Source: a virus
Length of the DNA stretch: 40,645 bases
Virus record (IMG/VR): IMGVR_UViG_3300045988_117988
Reading direction: 5' to 3' (one strand)
The position numbers and the translations under genes were made by a program. Shown piece by piece: positions 3,489-40,645 of this stretch. The notes under the pieces are model-generated. The model saw only the letters and a list, made by a program, of their open reading frames with translations. It was not told the origin of the DNA and did not search any database. Position 1 is the stretch's first letter, and every line of letters begins with the position of its first letter.

Positions 3489-4862
3489 ATGGCGGCGGCA
3501 GATAAAAAGTCGCTGACGCTGGAAGGAACACCAAATCCCAAGCAAGCCGAATTTTTCAAGAGCCGGGCAAGGCACACCTGTTATGGCGGCGCGAGAGGCG
3601 GCGGCAAGAGCTGGGCTATGCGGCGGAAGGCTGTGCTGCTTGCCCTCAATTATCCCGATCTGAATATTCTTATACTGCGCCGAACACTTCCCGAATTGAG
3701 GGTAAACATTGTTGAGCCCCTTATGAAGGAGCTGTACGGCTTTGCGGAATACAACGTTACAGAGCGAGTATTTCGCTTCCCCAATGGCTCTAAAATTCGA
3801 ATGGGCTTTTGCGACAGCGAGGCCGATGTATACCAGTACCAAGGCCATGAATACGACGTGATATGTCTGGAAGAAGCGACACACTTCACGGAAACGCAGA
3901 TGCAGTTTTTGACTACCTGTAACCGTAGCGTCCGCACAGACTTTACGCCGAGAATGTACTATACGTGCAACCCTGGCGGCGTAGGCCACGCATGGGTAAA
4001 ACGATTGTTTATCGACCGCGAATATCGTTCCGGCGAAAAGCCCGAAAACTATGCATTCATTCCGGCGAAGGTTTACGACAACGTAGCCCTTATGGATTCT
4101 GACCCTGATTATGTCCATACGTTGGAAGCCCTTCCCGAGGATCAGCGCCGCGCCTACCTTGACGGCGATTGGGACGTAGTAGAAGGGCAGTTTTTCAAGG
4201 AGTGGCGCAAGGAAAAGCACGTTATCGAGCCATTTAATATCCCGTCACATTGGCGCTGTTTCCGTTCAATGGACTGGGGTTATAACGACCCGTGCTGTGT
4301 TTTGTGGCTTGCCGTATCCCCCGACAGGCGCATATTCGTTTTTGACGAGTATTACCAAGACCAGCGGCTTGTGAACGATGTGGCACACACCATTCGCGAA
4401 AAGACCGGCACACGCAAAATTGATTACACTGTAGGTTCCCCTGATATGTGGCAACACAGGGGAATGACGAATATGACAAGGAAAGGTTTCTCCGGCGAAA
4501 GCATAGCTGAAAGCCTGATCCTGTCCGGCGTACCCGTAATGCCCGCCGACAACTCCCGCATGGTAGGCTGGCAGCGCGTCCGTGAGTTTCTTGGAGACGC
4601 ACCAGACGGCAAGCCGTGGCTGCAAGTGTTTTCAAACTGCCGCAATCTCATTAAGTATATGCCGCAAATGCAGTATGACCCCAACGACCATGAGGACGCT
4701 TTGGACGGCGACGACCACGCTCCAGAAGCTTTGCGCTATGGGCTTATGTCACGCCCCTCCCCTGCCTCCATACAGCGGGAACGGCAACGCAAGATCATAG
4801 ACCTGACAGACCCGTTTGTTGAACTGCCGCGCCGTAAAGCAAGCGGTTTTTTGAGTTTATAA
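3489..4862 (+). CDS. terL: Terminase large subunit
   Basis: Walker A GGARGGGKS and Walker B-like YDVICLEEA. C-terminal RNaseH-like nuclease motifs SMDWGYNDP and DDHAPEALRY. Confidence 0.9.
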   Translation: MAAADKKSLTLEGTPNPKQAEFFKSRARHTCYGGARGGGKSWAMRRKAVLLALNYPDLNILILRRTLPELRVNIVEPLMKELYGFAEYNVTERVFRFPNGSKIRMGFCDSEADVYQYQGHEYDVICLEEATHFTETQMQFLTTCNRSVRTDFTPRMYYTCNPGGVGHAWVKRLFIDREYRSGEKPENYAFIPAKVYDNVALMDSDPDYVHTLEALPEDQRRAYLDGDWDVVEGQFFKEWRKEKHVIEPFNIPSHWRCFRSMDWGYNDPCCVLWLAVSPDRRIFVFDEYYQDQRLVNDVAHTIREKTGTRKIDYTVGSPDMWQHRGMTNMTRKGFSGESIAESLILSGVPVMPADNSRMVGWQRVREFLGDAPDGKPWLQVFSNCRNLIKYMPQMQYDPNDHEDALDGDDHAPEALRYGLMSRPSPASIQRERQRKIIDLTDPFVELPRRKASGFLSL

Positions 4863-4873
4863 GGAGAATACAC

Positions 4874-5428
4874 ATGACCCTCAACGATATTATATACGCT
4901 GCTCTAAGGCAGCTTGAACGCGGCACAGACGCGCAGACCGTTGACAAATTCCGCCGCGTGTTCACCGATTATGCAAACAGCGGGCAGCGTCGCCTTGCCA
5001 ATCGCTTCAAAGTAACGCGGCTTGAAACCATTACGCTGGATGACAAAGGCCGGTTCAATGTGGATTCGCTGGAACGCTCTTGTGTGCTGATAGAGAAAAT
5101 AACTGACGGAAACGGTGCTGTGATGTCATGGGACGAGATAGTGACCGGGCTTATCGAAGTGACCAACGGCGCGAATGCCGATGTCAATGTGTACTATCGA
5201 TATATGCCCCGTGAGATGTCCTCCCCAACCGATGTTCCGGAGCTTCCCTCTTATATGCACAGCGCTATCCCCTATTATGTTGTTGGCTGTCAGCGCTGCG
5301 GTTCAGATGCAGATACACAGGCCACGGCAGGAGCGCACTTCGACTTGTTCAATCGCGAGGTGTCCGACATATATTCCCAGCACTACGCATCTAAGGACGC
5401 ATATACCTTAAAAAACATGGGGTGGTAA
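4874..5428 (+). CDS. Virion protein, possible head-tail adaptor
   Basis: 184 aa with AAGGAG before the ATG, positioned between TerL and a large structural gene. The adaptor assignment rests on position and size only. Confidence 0.5.
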   Translation: MTLNDIIYAALRQLERGTDAQTVDKFRRVFTDYANSGQRRLANRFKVTRLETITLDDKGRFNVDSLERSCVLIEKITDGNGAVMSWDEIVTGLIEVTNGANADVNVYYRYMPREMSSPTDVPELPSYMHSAIPYYVVGCQRCGSDADTQATAGAHFDLFNREVSDIYSQHYASKDAYTLKNMGW

Positions 5429-33562: not shown

Positions 33563-33970
33563 TTGTTGTTATATGAACATTTACGCGCCATGAAGGACGC
33601 GAGTAATATGACGGCGCAGCAGATAGCGGACAAAAGTAGTGTGCCCGTTGCCACGGTAAACCGCGTGCTTCAGGGCTTAACGGAAAATCCGGGGTTCGAT
33701 ACGGTCTACAAGATAGTAAAGGCCATGGGCGGGAGCCTGAACGATCTGGACGAGGATAGGGTGTGTGAGCCGGAAGGATTGACGCAGTTATACGAAAGAG
33801 GGTTAGAATACAGGGAGCGGAAGATAAAGAAGCTGGAACGCACGATAATGATAATAGCGGTATTTACTTTTATTGTTATGGCGGCGGTCATAGGAATGCT
33901 GGTATATGATATGACGCATCCTAGCATTGGATGGATACAGACCGCGAGTAATGCGGTGGCAATGATATAG
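33563..33970 (+). CDS. Membrane-anchored HTH protein (XRE-type HTH + C-terminal TM)
   Basis: TTG start behind GAAGGTG. HTH MTAQQIADKSSVPVATVNRVLQG and TM segment IMIIAVFTFIVMAAVIGMLVY. Confidence 0.65.
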   Translation: MLLYEHLRAMKDASNMTAQQIADKSSVPVATVNRVLQGLTENPGFDTVYKIVKAMGGSLNDLDEDRVCEPEGLTQLYERGLEYRERKIKKLERTIMIIAVFTFIVMAAVIGMLVYDMTHPSIGWIQTASNAVAMI

Positions 33971-33981
33971 GGAGGGGAACA

Positions 33982-34539
33982 ATGAGTAAGTGTGCACACT
34001 GCGGAAAAGAAGTTGAGTATGTTACTGACGGTCTATGCCCGGAATGTTCAAAGAGTTGTGATGACGCAATTAAGCTCTTAGATTACAAAGCCACAATTTT
34101 AGGTTTTATATATGTGGCTGTCAAGGCGTTGCTCGGTATTACCAACGGTCAAATGACCTTTGGGGAGGCTGTGTGCGAAACAGTTGGCACGATAATTGCC
34201 GCACAAATACTCTGCGCGATAGCTGCCCTTTTTGTAAAGCCGCTTTATGCTAAGAGCAAGCGTTACCGTATTATCGCGAGTATTGTTGCAATAGCCATTA
34301 TATCTTCCGTGCTTTACGCTCGCAGTCTCAACGACAAACCGCAAGTTTCATATGACGATTATCAACAATTACTTGAGGAATATAATGAACTTTGTAAAGA
34401 TTCTACTTATGTTTCCGATCAATACGATGATCTACTGCAAGATTTGAGCAATCTTTCCGACGAGGTTGAGGGCGAAGAATATTATGGATACGATGAGATA
34501 GCTGATGAGCTCGACGAAATAGTATATATCCATGAATAA
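33982..34539 (+). CDS. Zinc-ribbon membrane protein with an acidic C-terminus (AT-rich gene)
   Basis: CAHCG...CPEC, about three TM segments, and the tail DDLLQDLSNLSDEVEGEEYYGYDEIADELDE. Confidence 0.65.
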   Translation: MSKCAHCGKEVEYVTDGLCPECSKSCDDAIKLLDYKATILGFIYVAVKALLGITNGQMTFGEAVCETVGTIIAAQILCAIAALFVKPLYAKSKRYRIIASIVAIAIISSVLYARSLNDKPQVSYDDYQQLLEEYNELCKDSTYVSDQYDDLLQDLSNLSDEVEGEEYYGYDEIADELDEIVYIHE

Positions 34540-34647: not shown

Positions 34648-35742
34648 ATGAAAAAACTTAGGACGAATGAGGCGGCGTGGCTTGAGAAGTCAGGCAGATG
34701 GAGCATCAAGGTGCAGCGGGACGGCGAAAGGAAACAGTTTACCAGCTCCAAACCGGGACGCAAGGGTAAGCTGGAGGCCGAACGCAAGGCGGATGAGTGG
34801 CTCGAAAAGGGTATAGCCAAAGATCAGAGGTTTGCCGCCGCCTATGATGACTTTGTAACCGCCAAACGCCGCGAGACCGGGACGAGTTGGACAACGCAGC
34901 TTGATTCCGTTGGCCGAATCTACCTAAAGCCCTATCTGGAGCATAAAAAAGTCAGCGACATCACTACGCAGGACTGGAAAAACTGCATACTCACGGCCTA
35001 TGAGCGAGGCCTCAGCCATAAGACGCTGACCAATATACGGGGCGCAATAACAAATTTCCATACCTACTGCGAGGACGCGGGGATTGAGATAGCACCGCTC
35101 CGCAAGCTCAAAGTGCCGGACGACGCGCCAACAAGAGAAAAAACTATCCTGCAACCCGATGACCTTAAAACCCTGTTTGGCTGCGATACGCTCAAATGGC
35201 GGGGACAAGATAGTAAGTGTTGGTACATCAACGCATGGCGGCTGATGGTGATACTGGGCTTGCGGCGCGGTGAACTGTGCGGCTTGCAGCGTGGCGATGT
35301 GCAGGACGGCAAACTGTACATACGCCGAGCAGTCAACCGTTACGGCGAGATAACCAAGGGCAAAACCAAGGCGGCGCAAAGGTGTATTACCTTACCGGCT
35401 CACGCCCTGTATATCCTTGACGAGCAGGCGGCACTGCTTCGGGCGGCGGGTATAGTGTCCGCCTGGTTGTTCCCCGACGGGGACGGGCGCGTATCAGATC
35501 CCGACAACCTCTACAAAAGGTGGAAATCCTACGCCAACCAGCATGGGATAAGGTCAAGTCTGCACGAGCTCAGGCACACTCACATTAGCCTGATGCAGGA
35601 CGAGATGCCGGAAAACCTGCTCAAACGTATTGTTGGACACACCAAAACCATGGACACCTTCGGTGTTTACGGTCACGAGGTAGACGGCGAGGCGGCAAAG
35701 GCGGCGCGGATAATTGACAGGGTTTTTGACGGACTGATTTAA
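34648..35742 (+). CDS. int: Tyrosine integrase
   Basis: The start MKKLRTNE lies behind AAAGGAGG. The N-terminal arm-binding-like sheet reads GRWSIKVQRDGERKQF. Catalytic motifs are GLRRGEL, HELRHTHISL and GHTKTMDTFGVYGH. Confidence 0.9.
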   Translation: MKKLRTNEAAWLEKSGRWSIKVQRDGERKQFTSSKPGRKGKLEAERKADEWLEKGIAKDQRFAAAYDDFVTAKRRETGTSWTTQLDSVGRIYLKPYLEHKKVSDITTQDWKNCILTAYERGLSHKTLTNIRGAITNFHTYCEDAGIEIAPLRKLKVPDDAPTREKTILQPDDLKTLFGCDTLKWRGQDSKCWYINAWRLMVILGLRRGELCGLQRGDVQDGKLYIRRAVNRYGEITKGKTKAAQRCITLPAHALYILDEQAALLRAAGIVSAWLFPDGDGRVSDPDNLYKRWKSYANQHGIRSSLHELRHTHISLMQDEMPENLLKRIVGHTKTMDTFGVYGHEVDGEAAKAARIIDRVFDGLI

Positions 35743-35753
35743 GCAGCAAAAAA

Positions 35754-35970
35754 GTGGGTACTTTGGTGGGTACTCTGGAAATAACAAACGCCTGAATTAT
35801 TAGAGATTCAGGCGTTTTTGGTGGTAGGGTATGCGGGGTTTTCATCCGACCCCATTTACCTTTTTGAGCGTCAACCGTTTGCGTTTTCCCATCAATTTAG
35901 GGGATTTTTTGCTCCGTGGCGTGTGCCGCAAACATACAAAAATATAATCAAGTGGGTACAAAGTGGGTAC
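35754..35970. other. attP candidate with four same-orientation GTGGGTAC repeats (arm-type sites)
   Basis: GTGGGTAC occurs at 35754-61, 35766-73, 35952-59 and 35963-70. This gives two tandem pairs about 200 bp apart, immediately 3' of int, in an otherwise non-coding stretch. Confidence 0.55.
35786..35820. terminator. Bidirectional terminator after int
   Basis: AAACGCCTGAAT-tattagag-ATTCAGGCGTTT followed by TTG. The minus-strand view is followed by GTTATTT. Confidence 0.8.
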
Positions 35971-36136
35971 AACAACGGCCCATTGCTGTTATATCAGTAT
36001 CCCCAACCTTTCGGCCAGCAACTCCCGCTGCTCGTCGTGCCCCTCGTCCCACGTCCATGTAATAACCTGATAACGCATATTGTACCTCCTTAAAATCATA
36101 CGGCGGGGGCGGAGTATCATTCAACGCCGATAAAAT

Positions 36137-36376
36137 TCATACAAAATCATAGTAAATGCTCGTCCCGTTACGTTTAAAACACTCATTCCAATAATCCGCC
36201 AGCTCTTCAGCGGCTTTCCTTGTTGCGCAGAGGTTAGCGGCCTGCATTCCGGCGATCCTCTGCGAGATGTTCATGATGTTATCATCGCTGCTGACTGTCA
36301 TAGTCCCTGCCCAATACTTCCCGTTCTGCTGCGCAAAAAATGTAATATAAAAATGTTTCGTCTTGTAGCTTGCCAT
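36137..36376 (-). CDS. Hypothetical 79-aa protein driven by a consensus promoter
   Basis: GGAGG lies 7 nt before the ATG. No motif was recognised. It is located next to attP. Confidence 0.6.
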   Translation of the reverse strand: MASYKTKHFYITFFAQQNGKYWAGTMTVSSDDNIMNISQRIAGMQAANLCATRKAAEELADYWNECFKRNGTSIYYDFV

Positions 36377-36421
36377 TTTATAACCTCCATTGTTCGGGGT
36401 GGTTCCCCTTTCGATGTCTCT

Positions 36422-36450
36422 ATTATATACTTACGGGAGTATATAGTCAA
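36422..36450 (-). promoter_or_regulatory. Consensus promoter for 36137-36376, with palindromic operator A across its spacer
   Basis: On the minus strand: TTGACT (36445-50), a 17-nt spacer, then TATAAT (36422-27). The palindrome TATATACT-N6-AGTATATA spans 36424-36445. Confidence 0.7.
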
Positions 36451-36488
36451 CTGAAATATTAAGGGAAAAGCCTTAAAGAATTAGAAGG

Positions 36489-36523
36489 ATATACTTGCGG
36501 CAGTATGCCAGAAATGATATAAT
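36489..36523 (+). promoter_or_regulatory. Promoter of RHH gene 1 with operator B over the -35
   Basis: TTGCGG (36495-500), a 17-nt spacer, then TGaTATAAT (36516-23). ATATACTTGCGGCAGTAT (36489-506) matches operator A at 16/18 positions. Confidence 0.65.
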
Positions 36524-36541
36524 GTCTGCGGAGGTGATAAC

Positions 36542-36721
36542 ATGGGCACATCAGCAACGAGGGCTAAAAGAAAATACAACTCAAAAACGTATGAACGACT
36601 TGACATCACAGTAAAAGCAGGAGAAAAAGAAAAAATAAAACAGAGAGCGGAAAAGTTAGGAAAGAGCATTAACGCCTATATAACCGATCTGATATATGAG
36701 GACATGAAAAAAGAGGGCTGA
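36542..36721 (+). CDS. Ribbon-helix-helix (Arc/CopG-type) regulator 1 (59 aa, below the track cutoff)
   Basis: Hand translation: MGTSATRAKRKYNSKTYERLDITVKAGEKEKIKQRAEKLGKSINAYITDLIYEDMKKEG. GGAGGTG precedes the ATG. Confidence 0.7.
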   Translation: MGTSATRAKRKYNSKTYERLDITVKAGEKEKIKQRAEKLGKSINAYITDLIYEDMKKEG

Positions 36722-36732
36722 TATAGCCCTCT
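36712..36732. terminator. Bidirectional hairpin terminator between RHH1 and 36732-37205
   Basis: AGAGGGCT-gatat-AGCCCTCT. A T-run follows on the minus strand (CTTTTTTC). Confidence 0.65.
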
Positions 36733-37205
36733 TATATCATTATCCCAAACTTTGCCGCCAGCAGCTCCCGCCGCGCTTGCGGTATCGGTTTGACCCCGGC
36801 GCACCACGAATGCACTGCGGCCTTGCTTACCTCGCAAGCCTCGGCTGCCTGCTCCAACGTCAGGCTGCGGGCCTTGAGCTGATCCCGCAAATACTCGCCG
36901 TCGCAGAGCACGGGCGCGCACCGGCCCTGCATATAGGCAAGCTCCCACATACCTTGCTGGTTGAGCGGCAGCGCGTGGTCGTCCTCGGTTATATCCTCTG
37001 TGCCTTGCAGCGCGTCCCGTATGGCTCTGTCGACATCGGGTGTGAGTTTGCGGTTAATAATCATATACCGCAAGCCCTCACCCAGTCCACGGATGGGCCA
37101 CATATTAGCTGTCTGCACCCGGCAGCGCGCCCCGATGATTTCGGGGAGCTGCGCCGCCATTATACCATACGCCCGGCCCAGGGCCTTAACCGTGTTGTCT
37201 GTCAT
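36732..37205 (-). CDS. Protein with an unknown N-domain and a C-terminal XRE-type HTH
   Basis: LRDQLKARSLTLEQAAEACEVSKAAVHSWCAGVKPIP. The start is taken at the ATG at 37205, 9 nt after AAAGGAGG. Confidence 0.65.
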   Translation of the reverse strand: MTDNTVKALGRAYGIMAAQLPEIIGARCRVQTANMWPIRGLGEGLRYMIINRKLTPDVDRAIRDALQGTEDITEDDHALPLNQQGMWELAYMQGRCAPVLCDGEYLRDQLKARSLTLEQAAEACEVSKAAVHSWCAGVKPIPQARRELLAAKFGIMI

Positions 37206-37281
37206 GTTTCGCATCCTCCTTTTTGCCGCCGGGCTTGTGACCGGCCTGCCGCATTACCGCCCTCGCGGGCGTCACTCTGCG

Positions 37282-37461
37282 TTATTTGTATATCTTGACC
37301 GTCTCCCAACCGTCTATCGCGGCGGTAGTATTTAAATCTCTGATGGGCAAGCGCTTGATCACGGCTATGCCCTGATTGATGATGCATTCATACTCATAAC
37401 GATAGGTTTTGGTGTCTACTGTCAATTCCTTCTTTACACGGTTTTCAAATGCTTTAGTCAT
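37282..37461 (-). CDS. Hypothetical 59-aa protein
   Basis: The ATG at 37461 lies behind GAGGAGA. The longer track ORF (to 37500) would start inside the promoter spacer. Confidence 0.5.
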   Translation of the reverse strand: MTKAFENRVKKELTVDTKTYRYEYECIINQGIAVIKRLPIRDLNTTAAIDGWETVKIYK

Positions 37462-37491
37462 TGCTTTTATCTCCTCTCTTGTTATGTCTGT

Positions 37492-37520
37492 ATTGTACAT
37501 CGCAAAGGTTTATCTGTCAA
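37492..37520 (-). promoter_or_regulatory. Internal consensus-like promoter
   Basis: On the minus strand: TTGACA (37515-20), a 17-nt spacer, then TACAAT (37492-97). Confidence 0.6.
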
Positions 37521-37599
37521 CCTATTTGGTATACTTACGTAAAAAATAAGGCAATCGCCTAAAATAATTAGTGTGGATTGTGTATCAGCCACGACTACG

Positions 37600-38055
37600 T
37601 CAGCGTTCCCAGCTCTTTTTTTCGATGTCCTTTACGGCCTCGATGCCGGGCCGCTCCTTTTTCAGTGCCTCAAACCTTGCTATTGCCTGCCGACGCTCCT
37701 TGCCGGTGTAAGTTTCGCTTAGCTCTTTTACCTGTGTCCCGTCGTCCAGTGTTTTTGTAAGCGTTATATAGTATTCGACGCCTCCTTGATAGTGTTTGTA
37801 CCGCTTTAGCGTCAGCGACAGCTTGTAACCCATTGTTTCGAGTTGCGCGGCACGTTTTGCCAACTCTTGTTGGTATTCCTGGAGGGCTGTTATATAGCTT
37901 TCCAGTTCCGTAATGGTCCTTGATGCCCGCTCGTTGTTTTGTAATATCTCCGCTACCGTTGACAGCTTGTCTGGTCTATAACAGTTGACATATAGCGTGT
38001 GATTAGCGTAACCATCGCGGCAGTCCCAACCCTCGAAAAGTTCTTTGTATGTCAT
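37600..38055 (-). CDS. Hypothetical 151-aa protein (central coiled coil)
   Basis: GGAAGGGAAAAG precedes the ATG. It starts 24 nt downstream of the J-domain gene. Confidence 0.6.
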   Translation of the reverse strand: MTYKELFEGWDCRDGYANHTLYVNCYRPDKLSTVAEILQNNERASRTITELESYITALQEYQQELAKRAAQLETMGYKLSLTLKRYKHYQGGVEYYITLTKTLDDGTQVKELSETYTGKERRQAIARFEALKKERPGIEAVKDIEKKSWER

Positions 38056-38079
38056 TTTCTTTTCCCTTCCGGGGCCTTG

Positions 38080-38571
38080 TTAGGCCCCTATCCTCTCGTA
38101 ATTCCCGCGCTCTTCGCGGCCCTCGAACACCTGAGAGCCGTATTTGCTCCTGATCTCCTCCATTGACGCCCTGCCTTTGTACCATCTGCGCCCATCCTCT
38201 TCGTGCCTCCAGTACCACAGGCCTTTTTTCTGGCTCCAGCGGCAGCCCAGGGCTTTCAGCTCGTCCTTGTGGGCTTTGGTCTCTCCGCCTATCCATAGCC
38301 AGGAGCCGCACAACTCCACGACCAGCCCGGACAGTTTGATAAGGGCATTGATGATCTCGATAAACTCGGCGGCGGTCTCGGTGGTTTGGTGGTACTCGTC
38401 CGCCTCGGCATTGTGCTTGGTCTTGAGGGTTTCGTGCAGCCTCTCATACTCATTGTTTATAGCCTGCATAATCTCGGTGCTGCCTCCCCTGTCCGGGTGA
38501 TACTGCATTGCAAGGCGGCGGTACTGTGCTTTGAGCCCGTCAAGGGTTTTGATATTGGCAAAGTATTTCAT
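38080..38571 (-). CDS. J-domain (DnaJ-like) protein with a Trp-rich C-terminal domain
   Basis: LKAQYRRLAMQYHPDRGG contains the HPD motif. The C-terminus reads CGSWLWIGGETKAHKDELKALGCRWSQKKGLWYWR. Confidence 0.8.
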   Translation of the reverse strand: MKYFANIKTLDGLKAQYRRLAMQYHPDRGGSTEIMQAINNEYERLHETLKTKHNAEADEYHQTTETAAEFIEIINALIKLSGLVVELCGSWLWIGGETKAHKDELKALGCRWSQKKGLWYWRHEEDGRRWYKGRASMEEIRSKYGSQVFEGREERGNYERIGA

Positions 38572-38590
38572 GGTGTTAATCTCCTTCCGT

Positions 38591-38693
38591 CACGGTTGCC
38601 CGTGTTTGACTGTGCCATAATCTTAGCATACCACGGTTGCCCGTGTCAATACCCTTTTGCAAAATTTTTTGTTGTTCCGCACGGTGTAACGTG
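38591..38693. promoter_or_regulatory. Three palindromic operator candidates (CACGG-N4-CCGTG type)
   Basis: CACGGTTGCCCGTG occurs at 38591-604 (5' UTR of the J gene) and at 38632-645 (promoter spacer). CACGGTGTAACGTG at 38680-693 abuts the -10 of RHH gene 2. Confidence 0.6.
38620..38649 (-). promoter_or_regulatory. Promoter of the J-domain operon
   Basis: On the minus strand: TTGACA (38644-49), an 18-nt spacer, then TAAGAT (38620-25). Confidence 0.55.
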
Positions 38694-38730
38694 GTATAAT
38701 GCAGAAAAAGTCAGAATGGAGCGGGATAAA

Positions 38731-38922
38731 ATGGCTGTCAGTCAGCGCAAAAAAGATTACAACCGAGAGTACGACAAAACAAAGATGACACGCATCGTAA
38801 TAAAAACGATGAACGACAAGGCCGATGCGATCAAAGCCAGAGCGGCAGAGCTTGGCAAGAGCACAACACGATACATACTTGACCTTGTATCGGCTGATTT
38901 AGACGCAAACTCCGGGAAATAA
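38731..38922 (+). CDS. Ribbon-helix-helix regulator 2 (63 aa), paralog-like to RHH1
   Basis: MAVSQRKKDYNREYDKTKMTRIVIKTMNDKADAIKARAAELGKSTTRYILDLVSADL. GGAG lies 9 nt upstream and the promoter TGgTATAAT is at 38693-700. Confidence 0.7.
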   Translation: MAVSQRKKDYNREYDKTKMTRIVIKTMNDKADAIKARAAELGKSTTRYILDLVSADLDANSGK

Positions 38923-38962: not shown

Positions 38963-38973
38963 TGTGGTATAAT
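38963..38973 (+). promoter_or_regulatory. Extended -10 promoter upstream of terS
   Basis: TGTGgTATAAT. No good -35 lies at 17 nt. Confidence 0.5.
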
Positions 38974-38986
38974 AGCTACTGTGAAA

Positions 38987-39019
38987 AGCCGTAAGGGTAA
39001 GACCTGCGGCTATTTTTTA
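38987..39019 (+). terminator. Promoter-proximal terminator-like hairpin in the terS leader
   Basis: GCCG..AGG-gtaaga-CCT.CGGC followed by TATTTTTTAT, beginning about 7 nt after the predicted transcription start. Confidence 0.5.
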
Positions 39020-39042: not shown

Positions 39043-39507
39043 ATGAGCCAGAAAGCATTTAAAAGCCCGGCAGAACTCGCCAAAAAGGTGGATGAGTACT
39101 TCGCAAAGTGCGAGGCCAGCAAGCAGGCCAGAGAGCTAAAAAGTGGTGATGTCAGGATACGCCAAGAGTTGCCCTCTTTTGTGGGACTTGCCGTATATCT
39201 CGGAGTAGCCAAAAGCACTATGCAGCTCTATGCCGATGGTAAGTATGATACTGGTAATAGTGATAACACCGCTGATAATGGGTCGGCAGATATACAGAAT
39301 TACTCGACTGTCTTCGCACGTGCGCGTGACCGCATCGAGTTGGAGACCCTTAACGCCGCCAGCAATGGCGATACCGACAGCCGCATAACTCTGGCGCGGC
39401 TCGCTAAGTTTGGTTACTCTACCAAGATCGAGCAGGACACCAAGGCGGAGCTGACTGTCAAATGGGAGGGCGTGGACACCTCAGATATAGAGGCGTGGGG
39501 TAGATAG
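39043..39507 (+). CDS. terS: Terminase small subunit
   Basis: FKSPAELAKKVDEYFAKCE...ELPSFVGLAVYLGVAKSTMQLY is the typical N-terminal HTH pattern of phage TerS. The start is taken at the ATG at 39043, behind AAAGGGGG. Confidence 0.75.
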   Translation: MSQKAFKSPAELAKKVDEYFAKCEASKQARELKSGDVRIRQELPSFVGLAVYLGVAKSTMQLYADGKYDTGNSDNTADNGSADIQNYSTVFARARDRIELETLNAASNGDTDSRITLARLAKFGYSTKIEQDTKAELTVKWEGVDTSDIEAWGR

Positions 39508-39838
39508 CCCCACATCCTTATGCCTCGAATGTGCCTGATTGCCTGGGCAAATCGGCATTAGTCCGGGTTGTTGCACCCACATTTGCACCCAGTCCAGCCG
39601 TTCCGGGGCCGCGATGCCAGGCCGATGGGCATATGGAGGGGGCGCGTTGCATTTTTTTTGCGCGGCAAAATCCAAAATGGCATCCAAAAACCCGAAGCAC
39701 TCCCCCCGATGTCGGGTACCCCCGCCACACACCACACACACATATATCGGAGAGGGGGGAGATATATCCACTCCTTCCTGTCTGTCAAAAATCTGGTAAA
39801 ACCCAGTTGAATAATACTAAACATAACCATTAGTTAAG

Positions 39839-39866
39839 CCTGTGATTAAATATCATGGGTTTTTTG
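39839..39866 (+). terminator. Terminator-like hairpin just upstream of the portal RBS
   Basis: CCTGTGAT-taaat-ATCATGGG (two G-U pairs) followed by TTTTTT. Confidence 0.4.
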
Positions 39867-39880
39867 TATTGGAGGGACAC

Positions 39881-40645
39881 ATGGCAGAACAAAACATCAT
39901 GACAACGATTTATGAGGGACTAAGCATTAAACCCTCGCCCGGTGACAGTGCAAGCGACCTTGTATCTGCCATACAGAGCCTATACGATGAGTACAAAACG
40001 GCCTATAGAGACGAATGGGACAGGCTCACGGCAAACGAGAAGATGTATCACGGCGACCACTGGTCAGATACTGGTTCGGGCAGTAACGAGCCCCAGCCCG
40101 TCATGCCTATCATTTTCTCGACAGTAGAGAACATACAGGCTGACCTGATGGACGAATACCCGGAAGCTGTTATAACGCCCGAAAGTTCCAACGATGAAAA
40201 GATAGGCAAGATATTGACCCGCGTTGTAGCGCAAAATCACGAGGCTTGCGATTACTTATATGAGTACAACGACCTGATTCACGACTTATTGGTTGGCGGA
40301 TACATGATTCAGGAAGTGGGCTGGGACCCGACACTGAACTATGGCTTTGGCGGCGCATACATACGGTACGTTTCCAACAAGAACATCATGTTTGACCCGT
40401 TGTGCGCCAACATACAGGACGGCAGGGCAGTGTTCAAAGTAGAGCGGCTGCCCACATCATGGTTCCATCAGCATTACCCCGATTATGCCGATTATTTCAG
40501 CGGCGGCAGTGATTTAGTCCCCGATGACCATTTCACCTTCGGCACAGAGATAGAGAGCAAAGAAACGAACTACATGATACTGCTTGAAGCGTGGGTTCGT
40601 ACATACGATGCGGAAAACCATAAATACGCCGTCCATATGCTGAAG
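39881..40645 (+). CDS. Portal protein, N-terminal part (continues at position 120 after circular closure; 594 aa in total)
   Basis: ATG at 39881 lies 4 nt after GGAGGG and the frame is open to the window end. It is the same frame as ORF 48-1139 once the 119-bp overlap is collapsed. Size and position next to TerS, scaffold and capsid fit a portal. Confidence 0.8.
   Translation, partial: MAEQNIMTTIYEGLSIKPSPGDSASDLVSAIQSLYDEYKTAYRDEWDRLTANEKMYHGDHWSDTGSGSNEPQPVMPIIFSTVENIQADLMDEYPEAVITPESSNDEKIGKILTRVVAQNHEACDYLYEYNDLIHDLLVGGYMIQEVGWDPTLNYGFGGAYIRYVSNKNIMFDPLCANIQDGRAVFKVERLPTSWFHQHYPDYADYFSGGSDLVPDDHFTFGTEIESKETNYMILLEAWVRTYDAENHKYAVHMLK
40527..40645. repeat. Terminal overlap copy 2 (identical to 1-119)
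   Basis: Same as copy 1. Confidence 0.95.

Follow-up and report, generated by a model that had tools for sequence, protein, structure and literature searches.

We analysed a 40,645-nt stretch of viral DNA (IMG/VR record IMGVR_UViG_3300045988_117988; 'the window' below means this whole stretch), a metagenomic contig (ENA ERZ27229628 k119_229394) of a gut phage, and concentrated on an accessory island of about 3 kb (approx. 35990–38922) located between the attP region and terS, the gene for the small terminase. The island is best read as a mosaic of three accessory operons under regulators of the anti-CRISPR-associated (Aca) type, with cargo genes that very likely serve early counter-defence or host takeover; we put the probability of this reading at about 0.6. 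Two of the units are each faced by a divergent gene for a small predicted ribbon-helix-helix (RHH) repressor, RHH1 and RHH2, and the middle unit is closed by a gene for a helix-turn-helix (HTH) protein, HTH157, with a predicted self-cleaving ribozyme between it and the preceding cargo gene. Accessory operons with Aca-type regulation are a known kind; the divergent two-regulator layout and the ribozyme link appear to be new. Coordinates of the features are collected in the table further below.

RHH1 and RHH2 belong, by sequence and profile comparison, to the RHH (Arc/MetJ/CopG) superfamily, and an earlier interpretation of the window made from its letters only (the sequence-only reading) was right in describing them as paralogous regulators. 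They share 37% identity across 46 aa (E 3e-8), both match phrog_13890 (RHH2 at 2e-6), and RHH1 scores 21.3 bits against Pfam Arc, above the gathering score of 20.4. A profile of the RHH family retrieved P22 Arc (1.1e-7), ParG (2e-4) and Mnt (0.044) from PDB. Aca14, as described and experimentally validated in a July 2026 preprint (Feussner et al., bioRxiv 10.64898/2026.07.27.740549), is an RHH protein of 66–67 aa that binds an inverted repeat in its own promoter and represses both its own operon and a neighbouring anti-defence operon. The best PHROG of the Aca14 sequence given in Table S2 of that preprint was likewise phrog_13890 (5.9e-8); RHH1 aligned with it in BLASTP (E 3e-4, 33% identity across 45 aa), and a 13-member RHH family profile matched it in hhalign (E 9e-7, 91% probability). 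Because of the common best PHROG, the RHH1 alignment and the profile match, we assign the predicted RHH repressors to the Aca14 family or to its near kin, with a different gene layout. RHH1 has 38 close and several distant relatives in IMG/VR and genome bins, and a scan of the genome collection with RHH1 returned only three relatives, all distant, in bins assigned to Oribacterium, Eubacterium and Acetatifactor.

Each RHH gene faces a near-consensus minus-strand promoter, and the promoter scan confirmed this part of the sequence-only reading (P1, 11 of 12 consensus positions; P2, 10 of 12). Its further claim, that a private palindrome lies in the spacer of each of these promoters, stood for the predicted operator O1a, which fills the P1 spacer exactly, and for O2b, which covers the −35 and spacer of P2; the perfect copy O2a, however, is located in the 5′ untranslated region (5′UTR) of the J-domain gene J163. 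Copies over the promoters of the RHH genes themselves, also claimed earlier, are present as O1b (RHH1 promoter: −35 TTGCGG, 36495–36500; −10 TGATATAAT, 36515–36523) and O2c, although the latter preserves just the outer CACG/CGTG arms. The pattern ATATAC-N8-GTAT occurs in the window only at O1a and O1b, a count reached in 0/100 shuffles, and CACG-N6-CGTG occurs three times in the 40.6 kb, each time within the 104 bp of 38591–38693 (three reached in 2/100 shuffles). Both sets, O1a/O1b and O2a/O2b/O2c, thus have the arrangement by which Aca14-type regulation is recognised, namely an inverted repeat at the regulated promoter and again at a second promoter. The 5′UTR behind P1 also contains a small hairpin (36396–36408, GGGGTGGTTCCCC on the plus strand), which is kept in relatives regardless of the cargo and gave no match in Rfam.

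The strongest non-experimental support for the predicted pairing of each RHH protein with its own palindrome comes from co-variation across relatives. The 165-nt stretch comprising P1, O1a, the 5′UTR and O1b is conserved in the 38 close relatives of RHH1, and the gene behind it changes. We compared the upstream regions of 32 distinct RHH genes: in 29 of them a divergent promoter (at least 9 of 12 positions) encloses an inverted repeat, and at least 11 different operator sequences are found. The outer arms of the operators are constant (TATATAC..GTATATA); the central 8 bp of O1a and O1b differ by subgroup, and they change together with residues of the N-arm and β-strand of the RHH protein (ERLDITV, ERLFIAV, SRIIIRV, ERIVVFT). 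Such sets were observed in groups A to D and in single loci (L039, L041, L042 and L043 in our numbering), and in them the copy at the RHH gene's own promoter changes too. Natural variants of the operator centre include GTGCGCAA, TGATGCCA and TCTATAGA, and GCGTGA in the second unit, where the RHH2 variant of locus L135 (ERLTIKYRKG) is paired with CACGGCGTGACGTG at all three sites, GTTGCC being replaced by GCGTGA. This behaviour is expected if the β-sheet of the RHH protein reads the centre of the operator.

The middle unit is of another type. P3 lacks an RHH operator and has just a 10-nt half-site, TATACTTACG (37530–37539); control of P3 by RHH1 through this half-site was considered and rejected: its count is at chance level (16/100 shuffles) and it is absent from most relatives. 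Since P3 has the half-site without an operator, and the half-site is also present in L135, which is without RHH1, two units of the island are RHH-gated and not three, as had been proposed from the sequence alone. Judged by its anatomy and by its relatives, the orf59–HTH157 unit is an acr-aca-like operon, with HTH157 as its predicted Aca-like terminal regulator. The HTH157 family is narrow (at least 74% identity) and occurs in unrelated phage backbones, where it always closes an operon with a P3-type promoter and the conserved 5′UTR; among 69 viral loci there were 15 operon architectures, each ending in this gene, and the cargo upstream of it came from at least 10 families. In loci L059–L063, a homologue with 94% identity to HTH157 closes an operon that opens with a full-length gene of the Pfam AcrIC5 family (E 3.7e-12, 46.6 bits versus a gathering score of 27), and the second gene of this operon, f25, is found elsewhere in RHH1 cassettes. 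Locus L207, an unrelated phage, has f26-like and AcrIC5-like (E 6.4e-23) cargo in front of a different terminal HTH gene. The Pfam matches of HTH157 itself were the generic HTH_31 and HTH_3, below the cut-off, and a profile search against PDB gave no match.

Concerning the cargo, only J163 could be assigned to a family. It has 831 homologues, and its DUF5710-like domain also heads a 249-aa protein that is the usual cargo of unit 1. In other gut contigs, J163 and an orf151-like partner are located at prophage ends adjoining host genes. The AlphaFold2 model of J163 (predicted local distance difference test score, pLDDT, 82) gave nothing below E 0.07 in Foldseek against PDB. No family match was obtained for orf151, orf59 or orf79 in Pfam, PHROGs, NCBIfam and PADLOC. 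By the same searches, the RHH-gated units of the window contain no known acr gene, and their link to such genes is indirect: f25 is a cargo gene of RHH1 cassettes as well as of the AcrIC5-type operon, and in L137 (see below) cargo of the first cassette is placed under RHH2.

The cargo genes are exchanged extensively under fixed regulators. Across relatives, P1 drives at least five different first genes. Locus L137 has the same integrase, a 100% identical RHH2 and identical operators, and its P2 drives the genes f41/f84/f1/o79/f2 instead of J163–orf151; this is the cargo set found under RHH1 elsewhere, and its first open reading frame (ORF) is a fusion starting with MKYF. The arrangement in L137 shows that either RHH platform can take the cargo set of the other. 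The junctions are located within the first four to five codons of the cargo (MASYK.., MKYF..). Compared with locus L016, orf79 originated by a 765-bp deletion between AGCTACA, which is codons 3–5 of the 249-aa gene that usually comes first in the cargo, and AGGTACA, which is part of the spacer at the ribosome-binding site of the gene that follows. This second gene codes for 75 aa, and its ATG became ACG. The small orf29 is a recombination chimera, the 3′ tail of which is identical to the consensus C-terminus of the HTH157 family (RRELLAERLGILI), and a 46-nt direct repeat with 83% identity is found at 35986–36031 and 36729–36774. Two of the six ORFs that had been counted as cargo, orf79 and orf29, are therefore scars of deletion and recombination. 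We also noted a 37-nt linker (CCGCCCCCGCCGTATGATTTTAAGGAGGTACAATATG, 36042–36078, minus strand) upstream of orf29, which recurs with 100% identity ahead of the 75-aa gene of L016. The linker ends in a ribosome-binding site and an ATG and is reused before different genes, which suggests that it probably mediates the shuffling of cargo.

The Rfam scan of the window returned a single match, the Twister-P5 ribozyme (RF02684) in the gap between orf59 and HTH157, which had escaped the sequence-only reading. The match (63.3 bits versus a gathering score of 37.6, E 5e-11) covers positions 1–58 of the 58 in the model with all core nucleotides present, and the minimum-free-energy fold reproduces the twister stems and leaves the ribosome-binding site of HTH157 free. 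The predicted ribozyme starts directly after the stop codon of orf59 (1 nt; offset 0), and the cleavage site, which we take to be the U-A step of GGU/AAUGC, would be U37256/A37255. Twister was found in 59 of 138 sequences (137 loci and the window), in five sequence variants, always at offset 0 past a cargo stop codon (that of a gene of the 167-aa family, of an AcrIC5-like 66-aa gene or of orf59) and before five different downstream genes. ORFs in the relatives were called by codon usage and ribosome-binding site, and the twister is read there as a 29-aa ORF or as an N-terminal extension. Two other ribozyme classes are found in J-domain cassettes: pistol in L049 and L052 (5674–5740), where it separates the first gene from an RHH-like ORF, and hammerhead-II directly after the J-domain gene in L042 (6494–6558) and L045 (6146–6208); hammerhead-II is also present in L046 (1226–1288). 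Twisters are common in viral contigs, where a scan with the core pattern detected at least 120 stretches, usually in arrays of small ORFs on the same strand. Of 107 proteins encoded next to twisters in other phages, most had no match in Pfam, and one further AcrIC5-family, one ArdC-N and three HTH_3 proteins were found, which is suggestive, but the survey has no baseline and we make no claim of enrichment.

Bacterial twister, hammerhead, pistol and hatchet ribozymes are known to have a common, so far unexplained gene neighbourhood (review PMC6765202). Our search of the literature found no report linking ribozymes with acr-aca or anti-defence loci. We tentatively propose, while thinking it somewhat likelier to fail than to hold, that self-cleaving ribozymes of the twister, pistol and hammerhead-II classes form an integral part of phage operons of the acr-aca and Aca14 types, sited directly past the stop codon of the cargo and cutting the polycistronic mRNA, which would uncouple high expression of cargo, stabilised by a 3′ hairpin, from that of the downstream repressor or cargo with its 5′-OH. 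Their recurrent placement at ORF junctions is the most novel and most easily tested element of the present analysis, and we consider the association not to have been reported before. Two further observations concern ribozyme neighbours: the RHH-like ORF after the pistol ribozyme of L049 is without a canonical start codon and has ACG at the expected place, and an unrelated viral contig (L147, 2723–5404) has five twister cores in 2.7 kb, approx. 550–950 nt apart, after almost every small ORF.

Computation gave the anatomy, the homologies, the co-variation and the exchange of cargo, from which we infer repression by the RHH proteins, the timing of expression, the activity of the ribozyme with its consequences, and a role of the cargo in anti-defence. 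Taken as a mechanism, the Aca-type reading would work as follows. Units 1 and 2 each consist of a predicted strong σA promoter (P1, P2) with an operator in its spacer and of a divergent, monocistronic RHH gene with a weaker promoter and a degenerate operator copy. Upon entry of the phage DNA there would be a burst of cargo transcription, because the RHH protein is absent at that time. As RHH dimers accumulate, they would bind the operators, occlude RNA polymerase, shut off the cargo and autoregulate the RHH gene; the spacing of the operator centres is about 64 bp in unit 1, whilst the three sites of unit 2 are spaced by 41 and 48 bp. The RHH proteins would keep cargo expression low in the lysogen. 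P2 would drive J163 and orf151, and unit 1 has lost its usual 249-aa cargo by deletion, with the orf79 fusion and the orf29 scar remaining. P3 would drive orf59, the twister ribozyme and HTH157, and the ribozyme would cut the mRNA 26 nt past the orf59 stop codon. The 5′ product would contain orf59 with a GC-rich 3′ hairpin and a 2′,3′-cyclic phosphate end, and the 3′ product would contain HTH157 and start with a 5′-OH. We infer that such cleavage could uncouple the stability or translation of orf59 from that of HTH157 and result in a high ratio of cargo to regulator. The effect of a 5′-OH on an RNA has a precedent in the glmS ribozyme and RNase J1 in Firmicutes.

Several observations weigh against this interpretation. 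The two-palindrome layout is found without an adjacent RHH gene in some J-domain cassettes (L050, L051), and RHH2 on its own showed no pairwise similarity to Aca14. The RHH genes of the window are monocistronic and divergent, whereas that of Aca14 is the last gene of an acr operon. We found no inverted repeat of at least 8 nt at P3 (37455–37570), which leaves autoregulation by HTH157 unsupported. The structure-based search that the sequence-only reading had called for gave no functional lead for J163: the matches in BFVD were limited to proteins with a J domain or DUF5710 and to a protein of Fusobacterium phage Fnu1 labelled 'molecular chaperone'; the HTH157 model (pLDDT 49.5) was too poor for a fold search. 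Pfam, PHROGs, NCBIfam and PADLOC linked none of the cargo proteins of the window to an established family of anti-defence or defence proteins. The case for an anti-defence role is one of association only, through sister operons with AcrIC5-family genes and the exchange of cargo with them, and no result contradicts such a role or one in host takeover. Copies of the twister are near-identical (the five variants), which gives no internal covariation, and some HTH157 operons are without a ribozyme. The likeness to Acr-Aca logic noted earlier gained the Aca14 homology, the operator co-variation and the AcrIC5-family sister operons, but no known anti-defence gene was found among the cargo of the window.

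Another possible explanation, which we regard as unlikely, is that the cassettes are morons or lysogenic-conversion genes, the cargo (J163/orf151, orf59, orf79) being expressed from the prophage to the benefit of the lysogen (superinfection exclusion, altered physiology) and the RHH proteins tuning its level. The units are autonomous promoter–terminator modules, their cargo varies as it does in morons, and in this integrase lineage transcription of the island, which forms one end of the prophage, is directed outward. However, with spacer-filling operators and autoregulated repressors one would expect the lysogen to express the cargo at a low level, some relatives have the same cassettes without a nearby integrase, and the regulators are homologous to an Aca, with AcrIC5-family genes in sister operons. 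Less plausible again is a secondary immunity system like immI of P22, where RHH proteins, as Mnt and Arc, would silence antirepressor-type cargo that inactivates the main repressor and so decides between lysis and lysogeny. In P22, Pant and Pmnt are divergent promoters, with the operator inside the target promoter. The layout of the window resembles this arrangement (a comparison made from established knowledge of P22), and Arc (1e-7) and Mnt (0.044) are among the matches of the RHH profile. Against it, no ANT, KilAC or Bro domain was found in any cargo protein with Pfam and PHROGs, a Bro/KilAC-like antirepressor (f3) is located outside the cassettes in relatives, and the extreme turnover of cargo under a fixed regulator suits a core switch poorly.

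We give very little credence to the possibility that the RHH proteins control terS and late transcription instead of the divergent cargo, and rejected it on the gene layout. All operator copies are in the divergent intergenic regions and none is near terS, and RHH1 of the window is 2.3 kb and a terminator away from that gene, even though terS follows RHH2 in the window, L055, L135 and L137, a terS-like gene stands directly after RHH1 in L001–L005, and an extended −10 followed by a terminator hairpin lies between RHH2 and terS. That the RHH genes are antitoxins of toxin–antitoxin modules, as weak sub-threshold Pfam similarity to ParD, HicB, TacA and FitA might suggest, is hardly credible and contradicted by the gene layout: the genes are monocistronic with no toxin gene downstream (behind RHH1 there are a terminator and a gene in convergent orientation, behind RHH2 there is terS), the proteins have 59–63 aa without a C-terminal toxin-binding extension, and no toxin family was found among the neighbours with Pfam, PADLOC and NCBIfam.

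The Aca-type operons thus remain the preferred reading, and their setting is that of a temperate phage. The two ends of the contig share 119 identical nt (1–119 and 40527–40645), a length that matches the assembler k-mer. It therefore represents a closed circle of 40,526 bp, in which attP is intact. The phage encodes a tyrosine integrase (34648–35742, Pfam Phage_integrase), TerS and a P22-type portal, and a DNA search against 50,697 GenBank phages gave no match. Loci L133 and L136 are integrated prophages, in which an identical integrase is followed by the host genes for DUF1002 and pstSCAB-phoU. Identity between these copies and the window stops at position 35848, which places attP just to the right of the integrase and the island between attP and terS. 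The attP region contains a 12-bp hairpin at 35786–35817 and, flanking the crossover point, repeats of the AAAGTGGGTAC type at 35751, 35949 and 35960 and TTGGTGGGTAC at 35765, which are probably arm-type binding sites of the integrase. In a lysogen, the island would occupy the far end of the prophage. The position at a prophage end, as given in the sequence-only reading, applies to this integrase lineage but not to most relatives, where the same cassettes are flanked by a glycosyltransferase-TPR gene and terS and there is no integrase in the vicinity.

Table. Predicted genes, control sites and borders of the accessory island (positions in the window, plus-strand numbering)
Feature	Positions	Strand	Remarks
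attP region	35743–35990		prophage identity ends at 35848; repeats and hairpin
orf29, recombination scar	35989–36078	−	about 59 nt from the start of f2 (60–63-aa gene) and HTH157-type 3′ tail
orf79, in-frame deletion fusion	36137–36376	−	MASYK (5 codons of the 249-aa gene) and the 75-aa gene
P1 promoter TTGACT-17-TATAAT	36422–36450	−	11/12 consensus; kept in all 38 close relatives
O1a operator (predicted) TATATACT-TACGGG-AGTATATA	36424–36445		fills P1 spacer exactly
O1b operator (predicted) ATATACTTGCGGCAGTAT	36489–36506		overlaps −35 of RHH1 promoter
RHH1, 59-aa RHH repressor (predicted), Arc/Aca14-like	36542–36721	+	Pfam, PHROG, profiles
Terminator hairpin, bidirectional	36711–36733		between convergent RHH1 and HTH157
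HTH157, N-terminal domain without recognised fold and C-terminal XRE-type HTH	36732–37205	−	last gene of cargo operon
Twister-P5 ribozyme (predicted)	37229–37281	−	Rfam RF02684; orf59–HTH157 gap
orf59, cargo	37282–37461	−	first gene of P3 operon; same (59,157) operon in 5 other loci
P3 promoter TTGACA-17-TACAAT	37492–37520	−	11/12; followed by conserved 5′UTR ACAGACATAACAAGAGAGGAG
orf151, coiled-coil cargo protein	37600–38055	−	travels with J163
J163, J domain (residues 10–56) and small DUF5710-like C-terminal domain	38080–38571	−	Pfam DnaJ 4e-7; phrog_15863 8.5e-49
O2a operator (predicted) CACGGTTGCCCGTG	38591–38604		J163 5′UTR, just upstream of ribosome-binding site
P2 promoter TTGACA-18-TAAGAT	38620–38649	−	10/12, TG extension
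O2b operator (predicted) CACGGTTGCCCGTG	38632–38645		overlaps −35 and spacer of P2
RHH2 promoter TTGTTC-17-TGGTATAAT	38672–38700	+	O2c in spacer
O2c operator (predicted), imperfect CACGGTGTAACGTG	38680–38693		spacer of RHH2 promoter
RHH2, 63-aa RHH repressor (predicted), RHH1 paralogue	38731–38922	+	phrog_13890, identity with RHH1
terS, small terminase	39043–39507	+	Pfam GP3_package 3.5e-15, phrog_606; right island border

Outside the island, a CI-like XRE repressor gene (33563–33970, plus strand) has a Pfam HTH_3 match at residues 7–62 and a match to a transporter transmembrane region at 76–126, so that its product appears to have a transmembrane segment at the C-terminus. The gene that follows it (33982–34539, plus strand) encodes a protein whose N-terminus is rich in Cys and which also has hydrophobic segments and an acidic tail; the two may form a membrane-tethered repressor system. 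The gap between RHH2 and terS (38963–39018, plus strand) contains an extended −10 (TGTGGTATAAT), then a hairpin (GCCGTAAGG..CCTGCGGC) and a T-run before the ribosome-binding site of terS, and the late/packaging operon may be under antitermination control. Between terS and the portal gene there are 375 nt (39508–39882) with no called gene, with G/C-rich runs and CACACACACATATAT; a gap of equal size is kept in L135 and L137, and it could be a pac site or encode a small RNA. Phages with a 66%-identical J-domain cassette (L049–L054 and L045) have a tRNA gene between terL and terS, at approx. 4300–4900.

If the proposed role of the ribozymes were true in general, it would explain a puzzle of about ten years, namely that unrelated ribozyme classes share one phage gene neighbourhood, and Aca-regulated operons would gain a third layer of control, at the level of RNA processing. 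With three ribozyme classes found at ORF junctions, the role of bacterial twister, hammerhead and pistol ribozymes becomes testable in a defined genetic context. The operator variants, at least 11, that co-vary with the RHH β-strand are raw material for a recognition code of RHH proteins and for insulated synthetic switches. Regulation of the Aca14 type would be extended to gut phage contigs, to a divergent layout and to two regulators per island. Candidates for anti-defence functions are orf59, the families of 42, 75, 108, 164 and 167 aa, the 249-aa DUF5710-like protein and J163, which may recruit the host DnaK.

Among known systems, the RHH-gated units are similar to Aca14 in having a small RHH protein (59–67 aa) with phrog_13890 as best PHROG and homology through RHH1, an AT-rich inverted repeat in the promoter, and one regulator for its own promoter and a neighbouring operon of small genes. 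Apart from the gene order considered above, they differ from it in the position of the operators (at the spacer and −35, whereas that of Aca14 overlaps the −10), in having two paralogues with private operators in one island, in their occurrence (gut phage contigs, with distant RHH relatives in Lachnospiraceae bins, versus Pasteurellaceae and other Proteobacteria), and in that the window has no known acr gene and RHH2 no pairwise match. The orf59–HTH157 unit shares with the acr-aca operons of the HTH proteins Aca1–Aca13 a strong promoter, small upstream genes that are hypervariable, and an HTH gene conserved at the end; an AcrIC5-family gene opens its sister operons, and the same cargo families occur with another terminal HTH in L207. 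It differs in that no inverted-repeat operator was found at P3, and HTH157 is likened to Aca proteins by operon layout and not by similarity to a named Aca; furthermore, a predicted self-cleaving ribozyme parts cargo from regulator, for which no report was found in the acr-aca literature. With P22 immI the RHH units have in common that repressors of the Arc/Mnt fold act on divergent promoters, with the operator located within the target promoter, and that they are autoregulated (both predicted here), whereas the cargo is not Ant and is freely swapped, and the two repressors have no common promoter pair. The ribozyme agrees with Twister-P5 in its full-length match to the model, in its location amid small uncharacterised phage genes and in the interchangeability of ribozyme classes by position (PMC6765202). 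The difference is that the neighbourhood here is legible: the ribozyme begins at the nucleotide after the cargo stop codon, in operons that have an Aca-like end gene or Aca14-like gating by an RHH protein.

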